Shown: positions 5,606 to 64,000, counted from the stretch's first letter. The stretch: DNA of 64,000 nucleotides from Roseburia sp. (GCA_026168605.1 JAPFDX010000034.1:12887-76886); one strand, 5' to 3'. Notes: a model not told the origin generated them from the sequence alone. Numbers and translations: made by a program.

Positions 5606-8353
5606 CTATGACTCCTCTCCCGTCTTCCATTCGCTCCGCACGTCCTCCGGCACATCATCCAAAAGGCAGGCACGGCTTTTTTCTTTCTTTTCCTGATACG
5701 CCTCCAGTGTCTGTCTGCCCGCGCGCGCTACCTCCTCCCAGAGATCTCTCGCCGATAAAAGCAGGCATCCTGCGCCTCTTATGATGATCTGCTCCAGCCC
5801 GTCGGAGGTCGCCACAGTCACGCGGTGCTCCCTTGCGTGCTCGTGGGCAAATTTCTCAATATACGCATCCGCGGTCTCCGCCTCCTTCGTGTAGACCACA
5901 TGGATGTTGTGATAGTCCAAAATTTCCGTCCCATGTCCCACCACACGGTAAGCGTCAAAGACAACGATCAGCTCGCACCCGCGGATTGCCTGATAATTGC
6001 AGAGAATGTCCAAAAGCTTTCCGCGCGCGCCGTCGATCGTCTCCCTTGCCAGTTCGGCGAGCTCCTCCCACGCAAAAATAATATTGTAACCGTCCACCAA
6101 AAGATATTCCACGCCGTCCGTTTTCGGACGGTACGTTCTCGTAACGGCAGACGAGGACTGCTCCCGCCGTCCTCTGCCGCGCTTCCACGCTTCCTTTGTC
6201 CCTCTGTTTGCACCGGAAGCCTGCGCTAAGATCCGGTCGATCTCCTCCGTGCCAAGCCAGATCTCCTCCCGCGCCGAAAAACTCTCCGGCTGCGTCTTTT
6301 TCTGCCTCTCCTCCGACGCCTCCGCAAAAATCCCCGGCAGATGCATATATTCTGCGACCTGATCCCACGGCACGACAAAGCCCGCGCCGTGCGCGCAGAA
6401 AACAGAATCCGGCGTGTGCTCCGTATCACGCGCAGCGTCATAGCCAAAAGCCTCCACGACCTCGTCCTCATTGTGACAAGGGAAATAGCCCTTGTTGGAA
6501 AGGGTCAGCCTTCCCTGCCCCTTCGTGTAGGAAACGACTTCCTTCTGGTAATTCTGCATCGTGGCAACGGGCGCGCTTCCCACAAGACGGCGCAGCATGA
6601 GCTCACCTGTGGCGCCCTCGTCTGCTTCCTCCCAGCCCTCGCCGTAACGGATCTCCCCGTGCATCCGCTCCACATCTGTCATCGCCCTGCCGACCGCCTG
6701 CTCCGGCACTTCCAAAACAAAATCATAATACGGCTCGAGCAGCACCGACTTCGCCTGCATCAGTCCCTGGCGCACGGCACGGTAGGTCGCCTGCCTGAAA
6801 TCGCCACCCTCCGTGTGCTTTATATGCGCCCTGCCCGACACGAGCGTGATTTTCATATCGGTAACTGCCGCACCCGTGAGCACGCCGCGGTGCTCCCGCT
6901 CCCTTAAATGTGTCAGGATCAGACGCTGCCAGTTTTTATCCAGCACATCTTCACTGCACGCGGCGACAAACTGCATACCGCTGCCCGGCTCTCCCGGCTC
7001 GAGCTTTAAATGCACCTCCGCATAATGGCGCAGCGGCTCAAAATGTCCGACGCCCTCCACCGTGTCCGCGATCGTCTCACGGTACACCACATGACCCGCG
7101 TCAAACGTGACCTCCATGTCAAACCGCGTCCGGATCAGATTCTTTAAAACCTCGATCTGCACCTCCCCCATCATGCGGGCAAAAATACCGCGCAGCTTTT
7201 CATCCCAAACGATCTGGAGCTGTGGATCTTCCTCCTCCAAAAGTCGCAGCTTCGACAGCAAAAGCGCCGCATCCATTCCCTCCGGCGGAAGGATCCGGTA
7301 GGTGAGTACGGGCTCTAATACCGGCTGTTCGGACGGCTGTTCCACGCCAAGCCCTTCGCCCGGATAGGTGTCATTTAACCCGGTCACCGTACAAATACGC
7401 CCGGCAGTAACCGCATCCGCCGTCTCATACTTCCCGCCCGAATAAATGCGGATCTGGTTCACTTTTTCCTCCCAGATTTCCGGTTCGCCCCCGCCGTCTG
7501 CACCGCTCCTTTTGACGCCGGACAGTAGCTGCTTCACCGCAAGCCTTCCCCCGGTGATCTTCATGTGCGTCAGGCGCATCCCCTGCGCATCCCGCGTAAT
7601 CTTATAGACCTTCGCCCCGAACTCCCCCGGATATTCCGGCTCCTTCGCATAGGCAAAAAAATCCTCCAGAAATTCTGCCACGCCCTGCAGCTTTAACGCA
7701 GAACCAAAAAAACATGGAAACAACTTCCGCTCTCCGATCAGCGCGGCGATCGTGTTATCCGACACCGCTCCGTTTTCCAGATATTCCTCAAGCGCAGCCT
7801 CGTCGCACATTGCGGCATTCTCATAAAATGCCTCCGTCCCCCGGTCCGAAAAGTCCACGCAGTTTTCCGAGAGCACGCGGCGCAGTTGTGCGAGCAGCCC
7901 GGCTTTGTCCGTTCCCTGCTGATCCATCTTGTTCACAAACAAAAACACCGGAATGTTCAGATGCCGCAATAGCCGCCAGAGCGTCCTGGTGTGTTCCTGC
8001 ACACCGTCCGCGCCGCTTATGACGAGGATCGCGTAATCAAGCACGGAGAGTGCGCGCTCCATCTCGGCGGAGAAATCAACGTGCCCCGGCGTATCTAAAA
8101 GCGTCAGCGCACCGCCCGGCAGCTTTAGCACTGCCTGACTGGAAAAAATCGTGATCCCGCGCGCGCGTTCCATCTCGTCTGTGTCAAGAAACGCGTCGCC
8201 GTTGTCCACGCGCCCCGCCTTCCGGATGTTGCCGCTGACGTAAAGCATCGCCTCCGAGAGCGTCGTCTTCCCGGCATCGACATGGGCAAGCACCGCGGTG
8301 GTGATATATTTGAACGGCTGCTGCGCCGTCGTGTTTTCAGACGTATTCTCCAT
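5606..8353 (-). CDS. TetM/EF-G-like translational GTPase with C-terminal NYN (YacP/Rae1-like) RNase domain
   Basis: AHVDAGKTT, ERARGITI, DTPGHVDF and NKMD G-motifs; EF-G-like domains III-V; C-terminal LLVDGYNII..IVVFDAY..ETADAYIE..VATSD. Start moved from the track's 8533 to ATG 8353 (AAAGGGG RBS). Confidence 0.85.
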   Translation of the reverse strand: MENTSENTTAQQPFKYITTAVLAHVDAGKTTLSEAMLYVSGNIRKAGRVDNGDAFLDTDEMERARGITIFSSQAVLKLPGGALTLLDTPGHVDFSAEMERALSVLDYAILVISGADGVQEHTRTLWRLLRHLNIPVFLFVNKMDQQGTDKAGLLAQLRRVLSENCVDFSDRGTEAFYENAAMCDEAALEEYLENGAVSDNTIAALIGERKLFPCFFGSALKLQGVAEFLEDFFAYAKEPEYPGEFGAKVYKITRDAQGMRLTHMKITGGRLAVKQLLSGVKRSGADGGGEPEIWEEKVNQIRIYSGGKYETADAVTAGRICTVTGLNDTYPGEGLGVEQPSEQPVLEPVLTYRILPPEGMDAALLLSKLRLLEEEDPQLQIVWDEKLRGIFARMMGEVQIEVLKNLIRTRFDMEVTFDAGHVVYRETIADTVEGVGHFEPLRHYAEVHLKLEPGEPGSGMQFVAACSEDVLDKNWQRLILTHLREREHRGVLTGAAVTDMKITLVSGRAHIKHTEGGDFRQATYRAVRQGLMQAKSVLLEPYYDFVLEVPEQAVGRAMTDVERMHGEIRYGEGWEEADEGATGELMLRRLVGSAPVATMQNYQKEVVSYTKGQGRLTLSNKGYFPCHNEDEVVEAFGYDAARDTEHTPDSVFCAHGAGFVVPWDQVAEYMHLPGIFAEASEERQKKTQPESFSAREEIWLGTEEIDRILAQASGANRGTKEAWKRGRGRREQSSSAVTRTYRPKTDGVEYLLVDGYNIIFAWEELAELARETIDGARGKLLDILCNYQAIRGCELIVVFDAYRVVGHGTEILDYHNIHVVYTKEAETADAYIEKFAHEHAREHRVTVATSDGLEQIIIRGAGCLLLSARDLWEEVARAGRQTLEAYQEKKEKSRACLLDDVPEDVRSEWKTGEES

Positions 8354-8361
8354 AGAAAATA

Positions 8362-8406
8362 CCCCTTTCTGTGCCTTGTATTTTCCTATCATAGCACAGA
8401 AAGGGG
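8362..8406. promoter_or_regulatory. Perfect 13-bp inverted repeat overlapping the RBS and bracketing the -10 box of the GTPase-NYN gene
   Basis: cccctttctgtgc (8362-8374) / gcacagaaagggg (8394-8406); minus-strand TGcTATGAT extended -10 lies in the 19-nt loop. Confidence 0.6.
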
Positions 8407-14235: not shown

Positions 14236-15234
14236 TTAAAAATCATCAAATGTGTAGCGCTCCTCCACCGTCTTTTCCGCAAAAAACTGTTCCTTCATCC
14301 GCAAAAAGGCAGCCACGCCTTTCGCCCACTCCGCGTCTGCGGCAAGACGGATGCAGCCGTCTATGTGCAGCGCGCCGAGCAGCCCCTGTTCACACAAAAA
14401 CTGTACGGCATCCTCGTCTCTCACGCTGACTGCCTCTGCGCAGAGCGCGTCTGCGTGCGCCCGGATATACGCCTCATAGCGTTCCCGGCTCTCCGCGGCA
14501 AGTCCCACCGGGTAGCGCAGACGGTCACAGGCAAGGCGGTTTAACGTCGCCTCCCGCTCCTCGGCACAAGCCTTCGGGAAAATGCTGTCGTAGAGCGCAA
14601 AATCGATCTCCCCCTGATGCAGGCACTGTCTGGCGCGAAATCCCTCGCCCTCGATATTTCTGCCAAACAGATGCGCCGGGGCGATCTCGTCATAGCTCTC
14701 ATAGTATTCCGGGAACAAAAGCCGGATCCGCACCTCTTCTCCCCGCATAAAATCCACTTCCATATCGGAGGAGATCTGCGCCAGGATCTGCCGGATCCCC
14801 GCCGCCGGAGCCTCCCCGCCCACCGTCATCCGGTGCAGCCTGTGGCAGTTCATAAACGCGTCGCCGCCCACCGCCTCCACCGCATCCCCGAGTGTAAGCG
14901 TCTTAAGCTGCCTGCACTGGTAAAAAGCATAGCTTCCGATCCGGCGGATCGTCTGCGGCAAAATCACGGATTCCACCGCATCCCCGGCAAGTTTGCGCAG
15001 GGACGCCGCGTCCGTCCGCTGTCCCTCCAACGGCTCGCTGTCCGGGGCTGCACTTCTGCGCCCGGCAAAGCAGTAATCCCCGATTTCCGTCACCGGAAGC
15101 CCCTCAAGAAACTCCGGCACCAAAGCGTCCGGCGTCTGCCCGTACATCCCGAGCAGTCGCGCGCCGCCCGCACTGTCCGGCTCCCACAAATATTCATAAA
15201 TCCCTTCCGTGTCCTCGATCCTTTTTCTTTCCAT
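14236..15234 (-). CDS. BspA-type leucine-rich repeat protein
   Basis: VTEIGDYCF, IRRIGSYAFYQC, VEAVGGDAFMNC repeats; no signal peptide. Confidence 0.7.
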   Translation of the reverse strand: MERKRIEDTEGIYEYLWEPDSAGGARLLGMYGQTPDALVPEFLEGLPVTEIGDYCFAGRRSAAPDSEPLEGQRTDAASLRKLAGDAVESVILPQTIRRIGSYAFYQCRQLKTLTLGDAVEAVGGDAFMNCHRLHRMTVGGEAPAAGIRQILAQISSDMEVDFMRGEEVRIRLLFPEYYESYDEIAPAHLFGRNIEGEGFRARQCLHQGEIDFALYDSIFPKACAEEREATLNRLACDRLRYPVGLAAESRERYEAYIRAHADALCAEAVSVRDEDAVQFLCEQGLLGALHIDGCIRLAADAEWAKGVAAFLRMKEQFFAEKTVEERYTFDDF

Positions 15235-15250
15235 GTGTCACAGTGTAACA

Positions 15251-16186
15251 TCACTCGGACAATTTTTCAACGTCTGTGTGCACTGTGTTTTGCAACTGTG
15301 TCATACCGCCGAGCAGGATGCCCTTATTCGCCTCGTAAATCCGGTCAAACTGCGAAGCCGGAAGCGGGTTTTCCCCAAGTCCCGCCTCGATCGTGTAGCC
15401 GGGACGGTCATACTCCTGAATAAACCAGTCTTTGTATCCGGCATACCCCGACGCCGACGGCGTCTCCTCCACCGCGTAGCCGCTGACGCTACCAAAATAC
15501 TGCGCGATCTCATAAGATCTGTCCGGTTCATAGTCCAGATATTTCCAGTAGATCACCTCGCCCTGCGTGTGGTAGGCGAGAATCAGGGAAAAGTCGTGCG
15601 CTCTTGTAAAGCGGTACACTGCCGCGCTCTCCGGCGCGGTCAGCGGCGCGCTTCCGACATAATCCCTTGGCGCCGGAGACGTGTAGCCCTGCGCCGCCTT
15701 GATCGTCTTCGCCTGCTCCCAGCCCGCCGGAAACTGGAGATTTAAGTCCACACCGCCAATATTTGCCTTCCAGCCGTTCGGAAACGGGATCGCGGGGTAC
15801 GCCGCGCTGATCGCCTTCGCCTGCTCGTAATAAGGTCCACTCTTTAAAAGCCCGTTCACCAGATCCACGCCGTCGGGATTCACCATCGGTACGAGATAGA
15901 GCTGGTACGAGGAAAACAGCTCCCCTGCCGGCACACCGTACAAGTCTGTTCCCTCCGCGTAGGCTCTCGCGTATTCCTCCGCAAATTTTAACAGGATTCC
16001 CGTCGTAATATTTTCATTTGCATGAAAAGAAGCATTGTAAAACACCTGTGTGCTCCCCGTTCCGATCACGATATACGGAATCGGTCTGCCCATCACGGTG
16101 TTTCCAATGCTCCCCGTCTTAAGAAACGGATAACGTCTCTTTAAATCCTCCACCGCATAGCGGCTTGTCAATGAATTGTACAGCAT
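15251..16186 (-). CDS. M14 zinc carboxypeptidase (gamma-D-glutamyl-diaminopimelate peptidase/YqgT-like)
   Basis: HANE, NPDG, WKAN, VDLNLQF, YHTQG and TIE motifs. Confidence 0.8.
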   Translation of the reverse strand: MLYNSLTSRYAVEDLKRRYPFLKTGSIGNTVMGRPIPYIVIGTGSTQVFYNASFHANENITTGILLKFAEEYARAYAEGTDLYGVPAGELFSSYQLYLVPMVNPDGVDLVNGLLKSGPYYEQAKAISAAYPAIPFPNGWKANIGGVDLNLQFPAGWEQAKTIKAAQGYTSPAPRDYVGSAPLTAPESAAVYRFTRAHDFSLILAYHTQGEVIYWKYLDYEPDRSYEIAQYFGSVSGYAVEETPSASGYAGYKDWFIQEYDRPGYTIEAGLGENPLPASQFDRIYEANKGILLGGMTQLQNTVHTDVEKLSE

Positions 16187-53503: not shown

Positions 53504-55408
53504 CTATGGAATGCTCTCCGACAGACAGAGTGTGCCCCAGCCAAGCTGCGGGTTCGGCCACTGCGCGGTCTCCTGCGTGCTGCCCGCCGGCGTCACGTTT
53601 CTCCGCGCGCCGCGGATCAGATACGCCTTTAGTTTTTCGCCGTAAAGGTAGACGTCGTTGCCACGGATGATGCCCCACTCCATCAGAAGCGCCGCACCGC
53701 CCGTCACAAACGGCGTTGCCATAGACGTTCCGGTGCGCGCCGCATAGCCCCCGCCCGGCGCGCACGAGGTGATCTCCACCCCCGGCGCGACAATATCCGG
53801 CTTCACCTGGTTCGTCTCCCTGGTATACCCCCTGCCGGAAAACGATACCGGCTGCAAAAATCCTGCATCGTATGCCCCGACCGAGACAACCTTTGCCGCC
53901 GTGGACGGGATCGTCAGCGTCGTCTCGGCAACCGGACGGAAAAATCCCGTCCCGGCATTTAACACTCCCCCTGCGGGAAGCCACATATCATAGCGCCCCG
54001 TCACGATATTCTGCGGTATCAGCCTGATCGCCCAGACGCCCGCATCCATATAATCCGTGACCGGAAGAAATTCAAAAAAGATCTCCTGATACGGGCTGTA
54101 CGGGCTTGGCTCTCCGTAGTACAAAAGGATTTCGGTGTTTTCGACCACAAAACGCTGCGTTCCCTGTATACGGGAAATGGGACCTGTCACGGTACCGTTT
54201 GGATGCACCACCGCGACTGTCATCTCATCCGCATAGGACTTCCAGATCTGTAAGTTCAACGCCGTCTCGTAGGGGCTTACCGCAAACTCCTCCTCCGCCG
54301 TCTGCCCCATCGCAACCGTTCCCGCTGTGTGGACGGCTGCCGCCCCCTCATTTCCCGTTCCGATGACAATACTGCTGCGCCAGCGGTTTGCCATATCGTC
54401 CAGATAGGTCTCGATCAGGGAGGTGCCGGAATGACTGCCATAATTATTTCCAAAACTCAGATTGACCGCCAGCGATCTGCCGTATTCCTCCGCCTTCCGG
54501 AAACAGTAATCCACCGCCTGCATCAGCTCCGTTGTGCGCGGAAAACCGCCCGCCTGCGGCGTGCCAAGCTTTACGGCCAAAATCCTGCTCCCAAACGCCA
54601 CGCCCCGGTATCTGCCCTCTGACGCTCTCCCGTTTCCCGCCGCGATCCCAGCGACGTGCGTCCCGTGACCCGAGACATCGCGGCTGGGACAGACCGCAAA
54701 CCGCTCACGCTCCGTGGGCTGCGCCAGCGCCTCATTGATCGTCTCCATCGAAAACTCCGTGCCGAGAGAAAATCCCCCGGGCGCAGAAAGAAACTCCTCC
54801 GCCCCCGGCGCTTCCCCTGGCTGCCCAGGCGCCTGCACCCGCGCCACTGTGCCGGAGGGGATCGTCTGGTCCCACAGACTTAAAATGCGGGTCGTTCCGT
54901 CTGCATTGCGAAAATCCGGATGCGCGTAGTCGATGCCGGAATCGATAACCGCCACGATACAGCCCGCACCCGTCAGATCATCCCTCCTGCGGTCTAAATT
55001 TCCCGGCGCCGCCACAGAAGGCTCCCGCCCGCCAAACGCCGCGCCCGTCTGCAGCGGTGTGATGCAGGACGCGCGTCTCCCTCTGTCAACGGCAAAAAAC
55101 AGACTTTTCGGTTTCTCCATGTACTCGATCTCTGTAAGCGACGCCACCGCCGACACGATCGATTCCGGCAGAAGTAAAATGGCGTACTCATTCTGCAGGT
55201 TTGTGATCCGTATCCGTGGGTATTCCTCCGCAAAATGTTCCCGCAGCAGCGCAGAAAGCTGCTCCGTCGTTCCCCCGTACTTTACGATGACCTCCCAGGT
55301 GCGCTCCTCCCTATTGTAGCCCACGTCAAGCTCCAGTGATTTCTCCCGCTCACGCTCCGTCGCATCCAACGCCAGATTCAGCAGGTTCTCCATTTTTTCA
55401 TTATTCAT
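53504..55408 (-). CDS. S8 subtilisin-like serine protease (clostridial Csp-like), intact triad
   Basis: VIDSGID, GHGTHVAG, GTSMATP; start at MNNEK (55408). Confidence 0.88.
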   Translation of the reverse strand: MNNEKMENLLNLALDATEREREKSLELDVGYNREERTWEVIVKYGGTTEQLSALLREHFAEEYPRIRITNLQNEYAILLLPESIVSAVASLTEIEYMEKPKSLFFAVDRGRRASCITPLQTGAAFGGREPSVAAPGNLDRRRDDLTGAGCIVAVIDSGIDYAHPDFRNADGTTRILSLWDQTIPSGTVARVQAPGQPGEAPGAEEFLSAPGGFSLGTEFSMETINEALAQPTERERFAVCPSRDVSGHGTHVAGIAAGNGRASEGRYRGVAFGSRILAVKLGTPQAGGFPRTTELMQAVDYCFRKAEEYGRSLAVNLSFGNNYGSHSGTSLIETYLDDMANRWRSSIVIGTGNEGAAAVHTAGTVAMGQTAEEEFAVSPYETALNLQIWKSYADEMTVAVVHPNGTVTGPISRIQGTQRFVVENTEILLYYGEPSPYSPYQEIFFEFLPVTDYMDAGVWAIRLIPQNIVTGRYDMWLPAGGVLNAGTGFFRPVAETTLTIPSTAAKVVSVGAYDAGFLQPVSFSGRGYTRETNQVKPDIVAPGVEITSCAPGGGYAARTGTSMATPFVTGGAALLMEWGIIRGNDVYLYGEKLKAYLIRGARRNVTPAGSTQETAQWPNPQLGWGTLCLSESIP

Positions 55409-55472
55409 CCGCAGCCCATTCCAAAAGACACATTTTTTTATCCTATGCGGCAGGATGCCGCCGCGCACAAAA

Positions 55473-57394: not shown

Positions 57395-57433
57395 CGGAAG
57401 CCGGGAAACGTTCTTACTCGTTCCCGGTTTCCG
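57395..57433. terminator. Stem-loop at the asnB / PAP2 convergence
   Basis: cggaagccgggaaacg-ttcttact-cgttcccggtttccg. Confidence 0.55.
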
Positions 57434-57995
57434 CCGTACTTTGATCCGCTCTTGTCTTTGTCGCTCCTTTGACCGCACCGCAGAGTTTCCAGGCAAGAAG
57501 CGCACAGAGCGTTCCCACGACTGCGCCGCCGAGCACGTCCGTCGGGAAATGAACCCCCACATACAGACGCGAGAACGAGATCAAAACGGCGAGCGTCATC
57601 GCCGCGATCCCCGCCTTTTTCGAACACATCAGCAAAATGACCACCGCCGCCGCAAACGAACACGCCGTATGACCGGACGGAAATGAAAAATCGCCCGGCG
57701 CCTCAATGATCCTATGTAAGCCCTCGACAACTTCATACGGTCTCGTGCGCGCCAGAAGATTTTTTAAGACAAGGTTCGTGGCGAGCAGATTAAAGATCAT
57801 GGAGACTGCCATCACAAGCCCGGTGCGCCTCTCTTTTGGCAAAAGCAGCATCACAAACGCACACGCAATCCATATCCAGCCGCTGTCGCCCAGATGCGTG
57901 ATAAATTTCATCAGCGGGGTCAAAAAATCGCTGCGCAGATATTCCTGGATCCACAACAGTATCGGTCCTTCTATTTGTATCAGTAATTCTTCCAT
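57414..57995 (-). CDS. PAP2 family phosphatase
   Basis: K....RTRP, SFPSGH, SRLYVGVHFPTDV. Confidence 0.92.
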   Translation of the reverse strand: MEELLIQIEGPILLWIQEYLRSDFLTPLMKFITHLGDSGWIWIACAFVMLLLPKERRTGLVMAVSMIFNLLATNLVLKNLLARTRPYEVVEGLHRIIEAPGDFSFPSGHTACSFAAAVVILLMCSKKAGIAAMTLAVLISFSRLYVGVHFPTDVLGGAVVGTLCALLAWKLCGAVKGATKTRADQSTAETGNE

Positions 57996-58034: not shown

Positions 58035-58970
58035 TCATCTCCAGCCGTTTTCGGTAATGGATGCTCCCGTTTCCGAAGATACGGGAACACGCAGATATGC
58101 GTCGGAAAACACACTTCCGTCCCGCGATTCATAGAAAACGTACTCCTCACTGACCGCCTCCATCTCTCCCGTCTCGCTGTTTCGCCGGTCAAGCCTTTCG
58201 TACATCACGATCGTATATTCTGCATCTGTCTGTACCCCTGCCTCGGAGCAATACGCCAGAATCTGCTCCTCCTCCAAGTGTACTTCATCCTCCGTCAGCT
58301 CCTCGACCATAGTAAGGCTTCCGTCGATATATTCATATGTCTTATAATAATGTGTACAACATCCACCTCTCTCCATTCCATAGATCTGCTTTTTCTCCTG
58401 ATCAAAGTGCCCCAAAATAAGCGCGCTCAGTTCCGGGGAATATTCAAACTGATGCGTCTTTGGATTCCAGATCAGATAGACATAATCAATGGCATAAGTT
58501 CCATCCGGCATATCATACTGGCGAATATCCAAATATCCGTCAAAGTTCACATCCACCAGCGAAAATCCTAAGGTATCCCCTCTCGAATCAGGAATCATTG
58601 TCACACCGTTATCCCTCACATCCTGAATGACGATATTTTGTATTTCCCTTCCATTTTCCGTCACCCGGATGGTCTCCACATGGTAATCTGTGGAAGACTT
58701 GTCCCGCCATGCGTCTATGGTAAAAGTAAATTCCGGCAAATCCTCCCCTATTTTTGACTGAAAAACCAGCGTAAGGTCTAAAGCTGTTTTTTCTATCGGC
58801 TTTCCGACCGGCGCAGACAGCAGTTTGCTGTTTTCCGAAACTTCGGTTTCTTCCACCGGACGTTCCGCAGAACTCACGGTCTCCGTTACATCAACGCTTC
58901 CGGTTTCACTGCCCCCGCACCCGGACAGAAGCAGCGTCACCGCCAGAAGCAACGCAATGATCCACTTCAT
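58035..58970 (-). CDS. Lipoprotein of unknown function
   Basis: Lipobox LLSGC; LVDVNFDGYLDI and WNP..HQF motifs. Confidence 0.75.
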   Translation of the reverse strand: MKWIIALLLAVTLLLSGCGGSETGSVDVTETVSSAERPVEETEVSENSKLLSAPVGKPIEKTALDLTLVFQSKIGEDLPEFTFTIDAWRDKSSTDYHVETIRVTENGREIQNIVIQDVRDNGVTMIPDSRGDTLGFSLVDVNFDGYLDIRQYDMPDGTYAIDYVYLIWNPKTHQFEYSPELSALILGHFDQEKKQIYGMERGGCCTHYYKTYEYIDGSLTMVEELTEDEVHLEEEQILAYCSEAGVQTDAEYTIVMYERLDRRNSETGEMEAVSEEYVFYESRDGSVFSDAYLRVPVSSETGASITENGWR

Positions 58971-59095
58971 ATTTCACCCCATTCCAACCTTATCATTCAT
59001 AAGTATGTTTTACATATATCCTATCCATAAGTGAAAAATCTTCAATTTCCATCTTGTTTCAAACTTTTCTAACATAACAAACACTACCTGCCCTA

Positions 59096-59140
59096 TTCCG
59101 ATTTTTTGCCTGGTTCAACTTCTCGTTAAATGGGAAGTTA
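59096..59140 (-). repeat. Cassette-junction repeat copy 1
   Basis: Minus strand TAACTTCCCATTTAACGAGAAGTTGAACCAGGCAAAAAATCGGAA; the first TAA is the stop of 59138-59488. Confidence 0.85.
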
Positions 59141-59488
59141 TTCAGTCCACTTATCGCCGTTACACCGGCTGATGAAGTCGTAATGTAAACTCTCAAAGTA
59201 ATCGTTTGGATAAGCTTCGCCGTCCTGCTGCAATTCCAGCCCTTGTAAATCCATCATTTCATTGATATATGCAAGGGTATCGTGGATGCCTGCGATATAT
59301 TCTTCCTGGAGTATCTCCGCCAACACTTCTCTCTGCTCAGAGGTCAATACGGCAACAAGTTCATTTTTTATCTTATTGTCATCGATCGGTGGAAAGCCAT
59401 CCCCTTTCACCCACCGGGCGGTCACGCTGTTTTTCCGCTCCACAAGACCGTCAATAAACGCCTTATATAATTCTAAGCCCTTGTCCAT
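59138..59488 (-). CDS. Small acidic protein, immunity-protein-like (DUF6547-like by recall)
   Basis: MDKGLELYKAFIDGLVE..GIHDTLAYI..LHYDFISR; RBS GGAAGGG. Confidence 0.6.
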   Translation of the reverse strand: MDKGLELYKAFIDGLVERKNSVTARWVKGDGFPPIDDNKIKNELVAVLTSEQREVLAEILQEEYIAGIHDTLAYINEMMDLQGLELQQDGEAYPNDYFESLHYDFISRCNGDKWTE

Positions 59489-59503
59489 AGTTATTCCCTT
59501 CCA

Positions 59504-59550
59504 CAACTTCTGATTTTACTTTGTTCAACTCCCTGATAAATGGGAAGTTA
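59504..59550 (-). repeat. Cassette-junction repeat copy 2
   Basis: Minus strand TAACTTCCCATTTATCAGGGAGTTGAACAAAGTAAAATCAGAAGTTG, then RBS and ATG 59488. Confidence 0.85.
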
Positions 59551-59595
59551 TCGCTTTGTTCCTATTTAAATTACATTCGATACATAAGAATGGAA

Positions 59596-60033
59596 CTATT
59601 CAAGCATTTTAAACATTCTGCATTCACCAATCAGACAATCTAGCATATCTTCTACGCCAACTCCACACTGTACACAACATCCATTTGTAAAACAATAAAA
59701 TTCATTCGTGATGGTCATCACTAAAAACAGCTCATTTCTGCAACACTTTCCCAACGGATAAGTTGTTGTATTGATTTCATACTCATCTAACAAATTTTCA
59801 AAATATTCAGCATCTAAATTTATTCCGATAGCCCTTAATGGATTGAAATTGACATCTCTAAACAATTTCAAATTCTCAATATGAAGCGATCCAAATTCTT
59901 CAAGAAAAGCTTCTACATTTGCTGGCATTTCCAATCCAATTTCTCTATATCTCTTTTTGAAAGCAGAAATATCAATTTTACGTCCACGTTTCCATCCAGC
60001 CGCCTTTAGCCTCTGTAAGGTAGTAATTTTCAT
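59596..60033 (-). CDS. SUKH-3 family immunity protein
   Basis: LKAAGWKRGRKIDI, FLEEFGSL, FNP, YPLG motifs. Confidence 0.8.
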   Translation of the reverse strand: MKITTLQRLKAAGWKRGRKIDISAFKKRYREIGLEMPANVEAFLEEFGSLHIENLKLFRDVNFNPLRAIGINLDAEYFENLLDEYEINTTTYPLGKCCRNELFLVMTITNEFYCFTNGCCVQCGVGVEDMLDCLIGECRMFKMLE

Positions 60034-60050
60034 ACAACCGTTTTCCTCCT

Positions 60051-60097
60051 ATAACTTCCGATTTTTTGTTCCATTCAACTCCCCGATCAATGGGAAG
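60051..60097 (-). repeat. Cassette-junction repeat copy 3
   Basis: Minus strand CTTCCCATTGATCGGGGAGTTGAATGGAACAAAAAATCGGAAGTTAT, then AGGAGG and ATG 60033. Confidence 0.85.
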
Positions 60098-60110
60098 CTG
60101 CGAAAACCAT

Positions 60111-60758
60111 TTAACGCTGACAAGGCTTTACTCTTTCAATCATCATCTCAAACTTTTTCTGCATAGGGGTTCCATAAACAATCTCTTTGGTGGGAAATTG
60201 TTTATCAAATTCTTTTACGCAATTCTCGTCGACATTATAAATTTCATCTTCATAATAACACCCGCTTATTTCAGAAAAGGCTCCCTGATATAACTCACAA
60301 GCCAGAAGAGCATCTGCATACATATTTTCTGCATTACGAATTTCATATTTTTCCGCTGAAATAAATCCCTGTCGGGTGTAGTAATCCGGATCTCCACACA
60401 AAAGAATGCCTCTAAAGCTCAGTTCCTTTGCAATTTCTTTGGTACGGGCAATTAATCTTCCACCGATACCCTGGTGCTGGTACTCAGGTAATACACCAAT
60501 AGGTCCGAGACTTAAAACCTCGTAATATTTTCCATCATCTCCGACAATATAGGATTTCAGGCACATTGAATTTCCGATGATTCTGCCATCTTCTACCGCA
60601 ACAATATCTAATTCCGGTACAAATGCAGGACAATCTCGCATAATGTGGATGAGATAATGGTCATTACAAGCCGGGGTATAATGGTTCCAAAATGCTTCTC
60701 TGATTACATTTTCCGTATCTCTATGATCACATGGTATTTCTTGTCTTAGTTCAATCAT
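60111..60758 (-). CDS. GNAT N-acetyltransferase (YhbS-like)
   Basis: REAFWN, LGPIGVLPEYQHQGIG, CGDPDYY..GF; start at MIELRQ behind GGAGG. Confidence 0.85.
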   Translation of the reverse strand: MIELRQEIPCDHRDTENVIREAFWNHYTPACNDHYLIHIMRDCPAFVPELDIVAVEDGRIIGNSMCLKSYIVGDDGKYYEVLSLGPIGVLPEYQHQGIGGRLIARTKEIAKELSFRGILLCGDPDYYTRQGFISAEKYEIRNAENMYADALLACELYQGAFSEISGCYYEDEIYNVDENCVKEFDKQFPTKEIVYGTPMQKKFEMMIERVKPCQR

Positions 60759-60948
60759 TTTAACCTCCATCACTTCATATTTTTGTTGTTCTTTTCTTTC
60801 GTCCATCTTCTTGCCATTCGGACAAGAAGCGTCCCTCGCTTTCAGCTCGGTCAATTCTGATTTATCATTCCCTACTTCTGTCCCCTTTGCAGGTTTGGAT
60901 CTTTCAGCAAATTTGACTATATCCGCTCCATAAATTAAAAATCTATAT

Positions 60949-61218
60949 TCATAATCCAAGAGATGTTATATTCATACAGTCCTATGTTTCACAATGAATT
61001 ACAGATGACTGATTATGGTCTCCGAAAAAATTTACGACCACTTGTTTTCGACAGATCGGACATACTTCCGGAAAAATATCATTGTCTTTATACCAGAGCT
61101 TGCACCACTTGCAGATAAACGCTAAAGACGCCCCATCCGGATCGCCGTCTCCGGCGGCTTCGTCAGCAGCTTCTAAAAGTCCAGTGTCAACCCCAGCTCC
61201 GCACGCAGGTCTTTCCAT
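60949..61218 (-). pseudogene. Degenerate small Cys-rich ORF with an in-frame TAG
   Basis: ..CKWC..CPIC..IHCET*DCMNITSLGL*; the frame continues past TAG 60982 with a further Cys; 5' end overlaps the HTH stub. Confidence 0.4.
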
Positions 61219-61241
61219 CGTTCTTGTATGGATAATTCCAT
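61173..61241 (-). pseudogene. 22-codon 5' stub of an XRE-family HTH regulator
   Basis: AAGAGGGG RBS, then MELSIQERWKDLRAELGLTLDF*, resembling the N-terminus of HTH regulators of gut-clostridial mobile elements (recalled MELSIQERLKDLR..GLTLEQLA). Confidence 0.55.
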
Positions 61242-61261
61242 GTCGTTCCCCTCTTATCTGC

Positions 61262-61279
61262 TTAATAAGTGGGAAGTCA
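61262..61279 (-). repeat. Half copy of the junction repeat
   Basis: TGACTTCCCACTTATTAA, starting at the stop codon of 61277-61606. Confidence 0.6.
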
Positions 61280-61606
61280 TACAGCAGGGTTCAAATCATC
61301 ATCATAATATCGTTTGCTCTTCACTCTACCATTAACTTTAATTTTATAGAAGTAACAGTTTAACTTAAAATTCCAACAAACACCACAAATTATACCTATT
61401 ATATCAGGCTGATTACAAGGAGAAACTGGTTCTCCATAGATATATTGGGGAGATATTGGCAGTTCTTTTATATACTTAATATCCGGCTTGTATATAGTTT
61501 CAGGGAATATAATCACTACGTCACCATTCTCTTTTGTTTTGTATTGAATAACGGTCTGAAACAATCCCGATTGTATAGCTTTACTATCAAGACATACTCC
61601 CCACAT
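61277..61606 (-). CDS. Small hypothetical protein, immunity-like, possibly N-terminally deleted
   Basis: 109 aa, RBS GGGAGA, C-terminal W.FK..YFY.I..NG..KSKRY..DDL. Confidence 0.55.
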   Translation of the reverse strand: MWGVCLDSKAIQSGLFQTVIQYKTKENGDVVIIFPETIYKPDIKYIKELPISPQYIYGEPVSPCNQPDIIGIICGVCWNFKLNCYFYKIKVNGRVKSKRYYDDDLNPAV

Positions 61607-61622
61607 TTTGTTCTCCCTTTAC

Positions 61623-61669
61623 AAATCCCGATTTTTTGCTCCATTCAACTCCCGGTAAATGAGAAACTT
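61623..61669 (-). repeat. Cassette-junction repeat copy 4
   Basis: Minus strand AAGTTTCTCATTTACCGGGAGTTGAATGGAGCAAAAAATCGGGATTT, then RBS and ATG 61606. Confidence 0.8.
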
Positions 61670-61788
61670 TCCACCAATATCAATCATAAGGATAGATCTC
61701 TATATCATGCCAACTGGAAGAAAATGAAATATAATCTTCTTTTTTCCGTGAAGTTACCGCAGCAATATCGAGCATCTTTTCACAAAAA

Positions 61789-62244
61789 CTATCTTATGGC
61801 TGTCCATTCCCACCAAACAGAATGATACTCCCGCGGTTCAACCTTATATTCTATGCCACACTGATTACAGCGCACGATACAGTTGCGTTCTCCCATATAA
61901 CTAGATTCCCCTGCACTCACAAGCGTAAAATAACCATCCTGCAAGAGATGATACGGATTATCAAATCCACCTAACAAATGGCATGGGCAGGATAAATTCT
62001 GCTCGTGAAAGTCAAGTATTGCTATTGGACGATTTAAGTGAACTGAGTTTTTGTATATAAGACCACCTAACTCAATTCCTTTCGTGCCGTCTATTATTTG
62101 CTGCTTATAAGGAACAAGCTCCATAATCTTTGTGTGATTTTGGCTCAATGAACTAATTGCCCAGCTTGCCTCCCATATTTTTTGACTGTCACCCGACAAA
62201 ATGGCACTAAGAATTTCCTATGTTGATTTTTTTGTCTCTCTCAT
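61789..62244 (-). pseudogene. Cys/Trp-rich immunity-like gene with nonsense codon at codon 9
   Basis: AAAAGG-ATG(62244) MRETKKST*EILSAILSGDSQKIWEAS..GIELGG..CPC..CNQC..WWEW; TAG at 62218-62220 is in frame. A TTG start at 62199 is an alternative. Confidence 0.55.
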
Positions 62245-62276
62245 AAAGACACCTTTTCCATATAATAATTTTTCAT

Positions 62277-63446
62277 TTAAATTTCCTCCGGAATGAGAAT
62301 GCAGCGTTCCACACTGACATAAGTTCCAATATCTCTTTCCGTAAACGTGATCGTCGGCAGTCCCCAGAAATATTTATAAGAAAACTCCAGACCGTCAAAT
62401 GTATTTTTTCTTATTCTTACGGATCTCAATGCTTCATTCACCCGGTTATCCAGTTCTATCGTCCGGTCCAATGAGGTCTTTATCCTATCCGGATCGGCGC
62501 TGCTGTGTATTTCCAGTCCGCACCAGTTTTCCGGATCATAGCTGGAAACATTTCCATGATACCCCTCGTATGACAAATCATAAACTCCATGATATACTTC
62601 ATTTTTTATTTTATAAGTTCCAACCGGAAGATCCTCCCCGATTTTATACATACCATTGGGATACACAAAGCTTCCTTCACCTTCTCCTATCCCCTGGTAT
62701 CTGATCGGTGAGATCTGGGGCTTATGGTCTGCCGGAAACACAATGTAGTTTTTTATAGTTAAAATTTTTGTGTTCGACAGCGTAAAATATACAAAACGTG
62801 TGTTAGGAAACGGGAGATACCACACCCTGTCCACCATCAGAGATCCCCCCTGATTGCCAATATCAACTGCAAAATACTCCCCTTCCGGGATATCCTCCCC
62901 CACCCGATAGGAGCCTTCATAATATACCCTATTTTTTTCTGCTGCCGGAGAGGGGCTGCCGCTGTCTGCCAGCGCCATTTTATCATCATGAGGAAGCCTC
63001 ACATGCTCCCCCTCCGCCAGATACAGGTAGGACACCTCGGTATAGCGGTCCCAGTAAAGGTCCTCCCACATCTCCCCGCTCTCATCCTGCCGCCCAATCC
63101 AGATATCTTCTCCCGAAGATCCCTTCCAAACAAGATACAATCCCTCTGCTATATCCTGTCCGACAAGATAGGTTCCCCCTGTGATCCAGTCCGTATCCCA
63201 CACCTCTGCTTCCCGGATCATACGTTTTTGTTCTTCCTCGTTTTGTTCAACATAAGACCAGTAACCGGGAATTTGTTCCTCCAGTTCGCGGATATCAAAA
63301 CTGTGGAATGCCTCATAATCATCTGAAACCCCATCGCCCGTTGGACTGGAAAATTTAGCACCAATCGTACACCCTGCAAGGTTGAAAAATACGAACAGAC
63401 TTATGGCGATCATGGATTTTCTGCACATTGTTTTCATGATTTTCAT
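62277..63446 (-). CDS. Lipoprotein with three GxYxVGxDIPxGxY repeats
   Basis: Lipobox LAGC; GTYLVGQDIAEGLY, GSYRVGEDIPEGEY, GMYKIGEDLPVGTY. Confidence 0.78.
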   Translation of the reverse strand: MKIMKTMCRKSMIAISLFVFFNLAGCTIGAKFSSPTGDGVSDDYEAFHSFDIRELEEQIPGYWSYVEQNEEEQKRMIREAEVWDTDWITGGTYLVGQDIAEGLYLVWKGSSGEDIWIGRQDESGEMWEDLYWDRYTEVSYLYLAEGEHVRLPHDDKMALADSGSPSPAAEKNRVYYEGSYRVGEDIPEGEYFAVDIGNQGGSLMVDRVWYLPFPNTRFVYFTLSNTKILTIKNYIVFPADHKPQISPIRYQGIGEGEGSFVYPNGMYKIGEDLPVGTYKIKNEVYHGVYDLSYEGYHGNVSSYDPENWCGLEIHSSADPDRIKTSLDRTIELDNRVNEALRSVRIRKNTFDGLEFSYKYFWGLPTITFTERDIGTYVSVERCILIPEEI

Positions 63447-63499: not shown

Positions 63500-64000
63500 T
63501 CAGAGATTTTTAGCATAATCAATCCGACACGAAACGATTTTTGCCAGTTTTTTCAGCTTGTCCAATTCATCCTCCCGGCAGGGAAACAGTACATAAGAAT
63601 CACTCTCTATATCAATGTCTGCCAAACACATACCTAATGACTTCCATTTTCCATCAATGATCGCACACCATTCACTGACATCAGCATTCTTATCAAACCA
63701 TTCGACCTCTAATGGTAATGCCGCGTCTCTCATTCCCTTTAGTTCTCTTACAAAATATAAGAAATCTTCTAATTCATCTTTCCAGTCCCGTTCACACACA
63801 TACTGATTTTCTGCCAGGATATCCACCATAGATATCCATCGAATTTCTCTTAACAATATCTGGTCAAAATCTTCTATTCCTCTTTCTAAAAAAACATTCC
63901 TATGTTTCTTAAAATATGCTTCACTATCTGCTAAACAGTCAGCTATCCTTTTGATCACCGCACTATCATTTTCCGAAATAATAGAGGCAATTGTCTGTAT
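63500..64000 (-). CDS. Hypothetical protein (DUF6630-like C-terminus by recall); 5' end beyond the window
   Basis: Frame open to position 64000 (IQTIASIISENDSAV..); C-terminal LADIDIESDSYVLF. Confidence 0.65.
   Translation of the reverse strand: MQTIASIISENDSAVIKRIADCLADSEAYFKKHRNVFLERGIEDFDQILLREIRWISMVDILAENQYVCERDWKDELEDFLYFVRELKGMRDAALPLEVEWFDKNADVSEWCAIIDGKWKSLGMCLADIDIESDSYVLFPCREDELDKLKKLAKIVSCRIDYAKNL

Follow-up and report, generated by a model that had tools for sequence, protein, structure and literature searches.

A conserved junction element between the genes of a variable cassette array in Roseburia-like Lachnospiraceae

Introduction

Why do unrelated small genes in a gut bacterium share one and the same short sequence in the gaps between them? 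The question is raised by a 64,000-nucleotide (nt) stretch of Roseburia sp. DNA (GCA_026168605.1, JAPFDX010000034.1:12887-76886; hereafter the window), near the right end of which a repeat recurs between short open reading frames (ORFs). An earlier note on this DNA had described the repeat as a ~45-bp palindrome delimiting an integron-like cassette array and had suggested site-specific gene capture. According to the analysis reported here, the repeats are best explained as junction (linker) elements of a hypervariable, horizontally exchanged cassette array of the heterogeneous-polyimmunity type in Roseburia-like Lachnospiraceae. Site-specific capture is possible, and a role as an expression linker fits at least as well. 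Literature searches returned no description of the junction element or of integron-like arrays in Lachnospiraceae.

Structure and spread of the junction element

The conserved unit is about 60 nt long, and not ~45 bp, and extends into the Shine-Dalgarno (SD) sequence of the following ORF. Its consensus, derived from 44 distinct copies at 19 loci, is taAAnTTCCc-aTTTATCgGGgAGTTga-AnagAgcgaAAAATCGGAA-nTTgnnGAGG, with the start codon 5-10 nt further on. The parts are ordered as follows: upstream stop codon, 5' arm AAyTTCC, ATTTATC, box 1 GGRAGTT, GAA with an A-rich stretch, and box 2 ATCGGAAGTT. The true SD lies 2-5 nt past box 2, ahead of the start codon. Usually, the stop codon of the upstream ORF is situated within or just ahead of the 5' arm (TAA-CTTCC, TGA-CTTCC); in one copy from a sister species, the ORF continues through the hairpin and stops in GTTGAA. 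Conservation is strongest in TTCC, TTTATC, GG-AGTT and AAAATCGGAA. One heptamer occurs three times per unit, once inverted (AAyTTCC) and twice direct (GGRAGTT, GGAAGTT); the supposed palindrome consists of one 7-bp inverted repeat and a third, direct copy of the heptamer.

The make-up of the unit recalls translation signals. The 5' arm is anti-SD-like and the inverted box GGRAGTT SD-like; as CUUCCC, this arm shows complementarity to both boxes and to the SD. Box 1 (GGGAG) is predicted to pair with the 3' tail of the genome's own 16S rRNA at -10.0 kcal/mol, against -10.2 kcal/mol for the true SD. All 48 matches in the consensus set lie on the coding strand of the flanking ORFs, and every full copy ends in a ribosome-binding site (RBS). 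Copies at array heads keep the 3' two-thirds of the element and have the 5' arm exchanged for a strong extended -10 promoter (AGGTATAAT in G010:C162; TGGTATAAT in L076 and L089), as expected for a module of the 5' untranslated region (5' UTR). Other signals were considered within the repeat and rejected. A sigma-70 promoter (TTGAAT, 17-18 nt, TTATAG) would have a poor -10 and no space ahead of the RBS, and the hairpin is followed by a T-run on neither strand, so that it is no intrinsic terminator. An upstream ORF starting from GAATGG of copy c3, with its stop overlapping the SUKH-3 start, is not kept in copy c4 or in copies without the ATG.

In the window, four full copies (c1 to c4) and one short form are present, all on the minus strand, which is the coding strand; the five repeats reported earlier are thus all there. 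Two covariance models were used, namely R1, sequence-only and built from the four full copies, and R2, built from 16 copies. Under R1, the four full copies reached E values of 1e-13 to 1e-18, far beyond chance, and weaker copies elsewhere in the same genome were also picked up. Copy c1 (59081..59144; R2 51 bits, E 2e-9) opens with the TAA that terminates the DUF6547 gene; 4 nt of its box 2 are missing, and nothing but a 20-codon remnant ORF comes after it. Copy c2 (59492..59554; R2 64.9 bits) reads TAACTTCCC-ATTTATC-AGGGAGTT...AAAATCAGAAGTT-GTGGAAGGG-ATG. Copies c3 (60042..60104) and c4 (61612..61673) score 65.5 and 58.6 bits with R2. The short-form junction (~61236-61279) is TGA-CTTCCC-ACTTATT-AAGCAGATAAGAGGGG. 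On the same strand, a degenerate junction 5' of the GNAT gene (60839..60948) has a box-2-like GAAGTGATGGAGG and a weak R2 match (E 0.05). A fifth copy, c5, lies just beyond the window end (window-equivalent 64684-64747). Window-equivalent positions refer to locus L001 (C10:70887-90886), the window coordinate being the L001 coordinate + 58000. When the island is read past the window end, degenerate or short-form copies are found in most remaining junctions, and a recognisable copy is retained in only about a third to half of the junctions.

Genome-wide, R2 gave 9-11 matches in the 2.73-Mb assembly. They are confined to four AT-rich islands (C10:71967-82400, partly inside the window; C36:91597; C36:140349-141700; C6:58355), with none in core intergenic regions. 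Therefore, the element is not a dispersed repeat of the repetitive extragenic palindromic (REP) kind. REP sequences and bacterial interspersed mosaic elements occur in many copies in core intergenic regions, often in both orientations; the copies in this genome are all co-oriented with genes. The scattered REP- or terminator-like distribution which the earlier note had named as evidence against its proposal was consequently not seen. A target-site analysis of the C36 island was set aside, as the adjoining antiterminator gene has no syntenic orthologue in relatives.

Insertion of the array and exchange of cassettes

The array is 11.5 kb long and comprises 17 ORFs, all on one strand, between spoIIP and the resident gene of a PAP2 phosphatase. 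Two genomes of the same genus (G004 and G009) show the empty site, with the gene order gpr-spoIIP-PAP2-asnB and a spoIIP-PAP2 gap of 53-108 bp that contains the PAP2 promoter. This indicates that the array was inserted between that promoter and PAP2. No repeat-like pseudo-site was found at the empty spoIIP|PAP2 sites.

A sister species was reached via contigs with a variant of the GNAT gene. It has the same flanks around a 24.7-kb array of ~57 co-oriented small ORFs, with the same DUF6652 gene first (L106 + L103, ENA ERZ28577209 scaffold_92, composite 4168-28850). The families found include Imm5, Imm6, Imm19, SUKH-4/5/6, SMI1_KNR4, Ank, DUF7660 and DUF7674. In scale, this array is comparable to a sedentary chromosomal integron. 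In a further contig (L105:1-3766; GCA_022675345.1, JAIZPE010026296.1), the place of further cassettes ahead of a sister-type array is taken by cas9-cas1-cas2-csn2 (type II-A) and an rve-family insertion sequence (IS), probably through an IS-mediated rearrangement.

The two arrays are mosaics of each other. The core flank, from rpsT to DUF6652, is 84% identical between the window genome and the sister species, whereas the cassettes common to both are more similar: 95% for a 368-aa membrane protein, 97% for the GNAT gene (97.7% amino-acid identity over 215 aligned residues) and 92-93% for the block of the 78-aa ORF. Junction anchors are 86-100% identical and the intervening ORFs are unrelated. 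About 20 of the 22 informative block ends, by our count from the block coordinates, fall in junctions or at most 40 nt from an ORF end, and the pieces common to both species are collinear. For instance, one shared block has its left edge in the short-form junction, where it starts at the 5' arm. At its right end, c3 accompanies the GNAT cassette: identity is 100% through the c3 hairpin (26 of 26 nt), drops to ~83% beyond it, and ends at the RBS. Further blocks begin 2 nt ahead of an ATG or finish 5 nt past a stop codon, and another edge lies at the centre of box 2. The mosaic identities, together with breakpoints at gene junctions, demonstrate cassette-wise exchange and the transfer of cassettes across species, and the transfer postdates the species split. 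The comparison of strains and species for which the earlier note had called thus bore out its expectation that cassette content differs, with breakpoints at the junctions.

Variation continues below the species level. Between two sister-species strains that are 97-99.5% identical, 2.9 kb replaces 0.4 kb at one position; the left breakpoint lies inside box 2 (AAATCGG|AAGTT) and the right end just past a degenerate box 2. Of the four strain-level indels, three are explained by simple deletion between direct repeats of 8-9 nt (AGATTTAT, AAATCAAAT, ATTTGT-type), which implies that the arrays decay by microhomology-mediated deletion. In L103 compared with L104 (L103 445-620, 9380, 15117-15257), deletions take ORF ends and junctions and fuse neighbouring ORFs. 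Many joints seen at the junctions in assembled contigs of public runs turned out to represent the sister arrangement and no excision. Two apparent signs of excision were thereby discarded. The X9/X10 joint 2097->6746, at first like a precise deletion between c3 and c5, is a sister junction mapping partly to the c5 flank and partly to c3. Joints that seem to go back, in X12/X10, reflect the sister arrangement and not circles. Within the lineage, the array is stable, since 10 contigs with the exact SUKH-3 protein have the cassette order of the window; exact-protein look-ups for SUKH-3 gave only this lineage and this order.

The element in other genomes

R2 matches occur in 11 of 301 genomes of the order, belonging to three families. 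The profile scan proposed in the earlier note thus found, besides the islands of the genome itself, the same element linking genes that are not related to one another, both in arrays of other families and on mobile elements. In G150, the array lies downstream of rpsF-ssb-rpsR; the G010 array follows an AraC-type gene, and that of G065 is near gyrB and parAB. The array region in L053 includes a relaxase-like ORF, a tyrosine recombinase-like ORF and other ORFs resembling those of integrative and conjugative elements, and the L076 array comes after ORFs resembling a large serine recombinase and TnpV; in both regions, these ORFs were recognised by sequence, with no family search. Variants of the GNAT protein with at least 90% amino-acid identity are found in other taxa and contexts, including a metagenome-assembled genome (MAG) labelled Butyricicoccus pullicaecorum, which has a small array with weak copies. 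An exact-pattern scan of genome contigs returned mostly chance matches in unrelated phyla; the only true array was in a Clostridia MAG (JAJQEA010000405), where the element again comes after a DUF6547 homologue. A metagenome scan gave 18 loci, five of them real.

A leader of ~200 nt with a TGTTATAAT promoter lies just 5' of the first junction element in two genera, with 96% identity (L024:1-210, G010:C40; L054:6460-6656, G065:C105). It has no Rfam match and a fold z-score of only -1.3, and could represent either an array leader or the terminus of a mobile element. Next to the tyrosine recombinase-like ORF of L053 lies a 23-nt segment of this leader (8382-8404). At the end of G010:C162 (L023:10340-10536), a related inverted leader meets the last cassette exactly past the 5' arm and spacer (..AATTCCAGCTTATC|TATTAACTGTT..). 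Both contigs break off at this point, where an inversion may have occurred or the assembly may have been interrupted by a repeat. G010, which belongs to the same genus, also has a full-length TwoAYGGAY RNA (Rfam RF01731, 106 bits) 5' of nusB (L024:2020-2204).

Integron features and the search for a recombinase

The array is not an integron, because it lacks an IntI integrase, attC structure and fixed boundaries. In the whole genome, no integron integrase was detected, the best match to TIGR02249 being 56 bits against a cut-off of 265. Instead of the 57-141-nt imperfect palindrome of an attC site, with its single-stranded DNA (ssDNA) hairpin of R''-L''/L'-R' and extrahelical bases, the element has a single 7-bp inverted pair. 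The likeness to attC sites drawn in the earlier note does not hold up, as neither an attC-like fold nor covariation of that kind was found. In place of crossovers at one nucleotide (G|TT of R'), block edges are scattered over the 5' arm, box 2 and the RBS, and also lie 2 nt short of an ATG or 5 nt beyond a stop codon. The inference of gene capture is therefore kept in part: cassettes are exchanged at the junctions, but the boundaries are not at one fixed position of the repeat. What the array does share with integrons is a series of co-oriented, mostly promoterless cassettes behind an upstream promoter.

In the earlier note, the recombinase was expected either beyond position 64000 or in trans. 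The 27 kb read beyond the window end hold spoIIP, gpr and rpsT instead, and neither this region nor the island contains a recombinase gene. The genome carries 13 tyrosine recombinase genes (PF00589) and five serine recombinase genes. On the contig of the array, no tyrosine recombinase gene is closer than 150 kb, and all five serine recombinase genes are located on other contigs. Similarly, no recombinase adjoins any of the chromosomal arrays examined, including the heads of the window array and the sister array, where spoIIP is followed by DUF6652.

Expression linker or recombination site

The explanation tentatively put first is that the element is an expression linker which doubles as portable homology for the exchange of cassettes. 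At the RNA level, it would end one cistron and set up the translation, possibly also the stability, of the next. At the DNA level, cassettes would be swapped, replaced and lost between arrays at the element, mostly through general recombination of incoming DNA, guided by homology or microhomology, and not by an integron-type integrase. The SD- and anti-SD-like make-up, the fixed placement between stop and start codons and the 5'-UTR form at array heads together make a coherent expression role, which, judged from these motifs, would be translational coupling and/or SD-type stabilisation. As the sole sequence common to otherwise unrelated cassettes, the element offers a natural substrate for exchange by homology or microhomology. 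This is the kind of event actually seen: variable block edges, deletions between 8-9-nt repeats and collinear blocks point to general rather than site-specific recombination.

Several points weigh against this explanation. Predicted folding of the RNA or ssDNA is not better than that of shuffled sequence (ssDNA energies of -1.5 to -4.1 kcal/mol), so the term palindromic was an overstatement. Covariation in the 7-bp hairpin is marginal: paired cells make up 74.2% (71.9% after shuffling), a level that 15 of 500 shuffles attained; 42 of 500 matched the covariation score. A long-range helix between the 5' arm and box 2 was rejected, as it has no covariation. SD and anti-SD logic does not account for ATTTATC and AAAATC, the two stretches with the highest conservation. 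Copies are confined to foreign AT-rich islands, whereas an expression linker would be expected in core operons too. The layout, with its inverted pair, conserved 7-nt spacer and direct repeat, would also suit a recombinase core with an accessory site. Finally, general recombination shuffles existing cassettes and leaves unexplained how unrelated genes first acquired the linker; this first acquisition by new genes is explained neither by a linker nor by a recombinase acting in trans.

A dedicated site-specific recombination site, that is, the att site of an integron-like or rAID-like platform of Clostridia, is less probable, yet a serious alternative. The recombinase would be supplied in trans by the genome, whose 13 tyrosine and five serine recombinase genes are possible candidates, or by a visiting mobile element. 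The core AAyTTCC-ATTTATC-GGRAGTT would then represent inverted binding sites around a 7-nt crossover, with ATCGGAAGTT as accessory site. This agrees with the 8-7-7 inverted architecture, in which conservation is highest in spacer and boxes, with the presence of the element beside unrelated ORFs in at least three families, arrays on mobile elements included (L053, L076), and with array heads that keep the right part and differ on the left, as attI does from attC. The strain-level replacement, with one breakpoint exactly inside box 2 and the other end just past a degenerate box 2, and the fall in identity from 100% to ~83% right past the hairpin of the shared block point the same way. There is also an analogue, as rAID-1 couples intergenic repeats with a XerD-like recombinase (bioRxiv 10.1101/471110). 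However, no recombinase is linked to any chromosomal array, heads included, and the genome has no integron integrase. Block edges are heterogeneous, cassettes are collinear and unshuffled, only about a third to half of the junctions retain a recognisable copy, and the RBS is integral to the conserved unit. With a similar, lower probability, gut Clostridia (Lachnospiraceae and neighbours) may own a cassette-capture platform functionally equivalent but unrelated to integrons, in which a ~60-nt, three-box site would be recombined by an unlinked recombinase and would supply the stop/RBS context in arrays of up to ~57 immunity- and resistance-type cassettes.

Still less support goes to a purely cis-acting RNA element, such as the site of a translational regulator or a signal for RNase processing or stability, spread by passive descent from one donor operon. 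The strict strand bias, the fixed SD spacing, the SD- and anti-SD-like motifs and the position in the 5' UTR at array heads would all be accommodated. This explanation is nevertheless improbable: breakpoints between arrays cluster at the junctions, and the element flanks unrelated genes in many arrays and contexts, which requires recombination at or near it. Moreover, there is no structural covariation and no Rfam family match; over 63 kb of arrays, no Rfam 15 match at E <= 0.1 overlapped any copy. Decayed ends of a small non-autonomous mobile element inserted between genes (a miniature inverted-repeat transposable element, an IS200/IS605-type palindrome-associated transposable element or similar) might recall the short imperfect hairpin, the bulged T of some copies and, in L057, an ORF identified from its sequence as IS200-like at a distance of 1.3-2 kb from one copy, but are very improbable given single, always co-oriented copies fused to an RBS, no paired ends or target duplications, 9-11 genome copies with none in core intergenic regions, and a hairpin lacking energetic support.

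Comparison with known systems

Firmicutes, the phylum of the host, are reported to have essentially no integrons. The array resembles integrons and clusters of attC sites lacking integron-integrases (CALINs) in several respects: long arrays of compact, co-oriented, mostly promoterless, low-GC cassettes with one conserved repeat each, a stop codon that often lies in the first box of the repeat, an upstream promoter that drives the array, GNATs among many small genes of no known function, and content that differs among strains. It differs from integrons in having no IntI, a ~60-nt RBS-containing repeat, no stable ssDNA fold and no fixed boundary nucleotide. A CALIN is a cluster of attC sites without an integrase (Cury et al. 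2016, PMC4889954), defined by at least two attC sites found with the attC covariance model and no integrase within 4 kb.

In the rAID-1 arrays of Bacteroidales, intergenic repeats are accompanied by a XerD-like recombinase (Ross et al. 2019; bioRxiv 10.1101/471110). Skewed GC content, repetitive intergenic sequences, orphan immunity genes and a length of up to tens of genes in gut bacteria are common to both. In contrast, the XerD-family recombinase gene that defines the head of the rAID-1 cluster is absent from the window array and the sister array. The phylum is another one, the repeat is unrelated, the head gene is DUF6652 and the array lies inside the PAP2 transcription unit.

The closest gene content is that of heterogeneous polyimmunity loci. 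In the passages on these loci, they are described as tandem, co-oriented immunity genes of many families with short spacers and no toxin genes, which vary between strains, are reported in Firmicutes and stand only sometimes beside XerC/D (Zhang, Aravind et al. 2012, PMC3482391). The present array corresponds to this description in its gene content and its variability between strains: it has at least four co-oriented immunity genes in tandem, which belong to different families and are closely spaced, contains no toxin gene among them and varies between strains. The conserved junction element is a difference, as it is unmentioned in the passages of that paper on intergenic spacing and polyimmunity loci. 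Compared with those same passages, the non-immunity cargo (GNAT, methyltransferase, kinase, nitroreductase and hydrolases) is another.

Translational-coupling and STAB-SD-type intercistronic elements of Firmicutes, such as the cryIIIA STAB-SD, resemble the junction element in sequence. They share SD-like sequences ahead of the true SD, a pairable anti-SD-like segment at the end of the preceding cistron and a fixed stop/start position. STAB-SD elements are gene-specific, whereas the ~60-nt unit is common to dozens of unrelated, horizontally moving genes.

The array locus in the window genome

The array spans window position 58035 to window-equivalent ~69507, so that the window holds its distal half. 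Its GC content is 33-52% (mostly 34-42%), compared with ~45-60% in the remaining window. The picture of co-oriented, AT-rich, largely promoterless cassettes parted by a conserved repeat was therefore accurate, with 17 ORFs on one strand. The locus begins past spoIIP, which ends at window-equivalent ~69595. A TG-extended -10 directly past spoIIP (L001:11544-11572, window-equivalent 69544-69572) stands at the array head; it is the counterpart of the PAP2 promoter in empty-site relatives and would now drive the first array gene, DUF6652, a membrane protein gene whose start codon is at window-equivalent ~69507 (L001 11507). Inside the array, sites resembling promoters or terminators show no enrichment. 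Since the array lies between the PAP2 promoter and the PAP2 coding sequence, it is probably read as one long transcript.

Family matches in the array are DUF6652, DUF6630, a TehB-like methyltransferase, GNAT, SUKH-3 and DUF6547, and about half of the ORFs have none. All cassette ORFs in the window are on the minus strand. The DUF6630 gene (198 aa; PF20335) covers 63500..64000 and continues to window-equivalent 64096. It is followed by ORFs for a 389-aa lipoprotein (62277..63446) and for proteins of 136 aa (61789..62199) and 109 aa (61277..61606), all three without a family match, and by a Cys-rich 78-aa ORF (60982..61218), likewise matchless and partly common to the sister species. Next come the genes of a GNAT acetyltransferase (217 aa, 60111..60764; Pfam), a SUKH-3 immunity protein (145 aa, 59596..60033; PF14433, E 1e-12) and a DUF6547 protein (116 aa, 59138..59488; PF20184, E 8e-45). 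The last gene of the island encodes a 311-aa lipoprotein (58035..58970, minus strand), of which the sister species has only the C-terminal 123 aa.

Traces of lost cassettes were also noted. A remnant junction at 62254..62290 (minus strand) keeps the RBS and the first 11 codons of a 306-aa ORF, with 100% identity over 37 nt to the intact ORF of the sister species. The mini-ORFs MKNYYMEKVSL* and MKKFYKEE* (window 62254-62290; L001 6191-6270 / 6129-6169, i.e., window-equivalent 64129-64270) are remnants of this 306-aa ORF and of an Imm5 gene, both intact in the sister species.

To the right, the array is flanked by spoIIP, gpr and rpsT, and to the left by PAP2 (57414..57995, minus strand; Pfam), asnB and a CspB-type S8 peptidase gene. 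The latter (window 53504-55468) encodes a CspB-type prodomain and is germination-protease-like; its neighbourhood beside asnB and PAP2 is kept in relatives and the sister species. The nearest named homologues of the GPR protease, with 86-88% identity, come from MAGs labelled Roseburia sp., which places the host in the Lachnospiraceae. Among assembled contigs of public runs, the locus was found in gut metagenomes and metatranscriptomes.

Conclusions

A fixed chromosomal locus that is empty, 17 genes or ~57 genes long in close relatives represents population behaviour of the integron and rAID-1 kind in Lachnospiraceae. In the gut, integron-like immunity arrays have been described in Bacteroidales as rAID-1, which is defined by a linked recombinase. 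The present arrays differ by the RBS-containing junction element and by having no linked recombinase, and their cassettes are more alike across species than the core genome is. With the covariance model of the element, such arrays can be searched for in a simple way. Should the element prove to be the target of a recombinase, a new cassette-capture system would be present in a dominant group of gut commensals. If not, the arrays would be a clear case of a portable expression linker doubling as recombination homology. In both cases, the arrays are relevant to the circulation of orphan immunity and resistance-type genes in gut Firmicutes.

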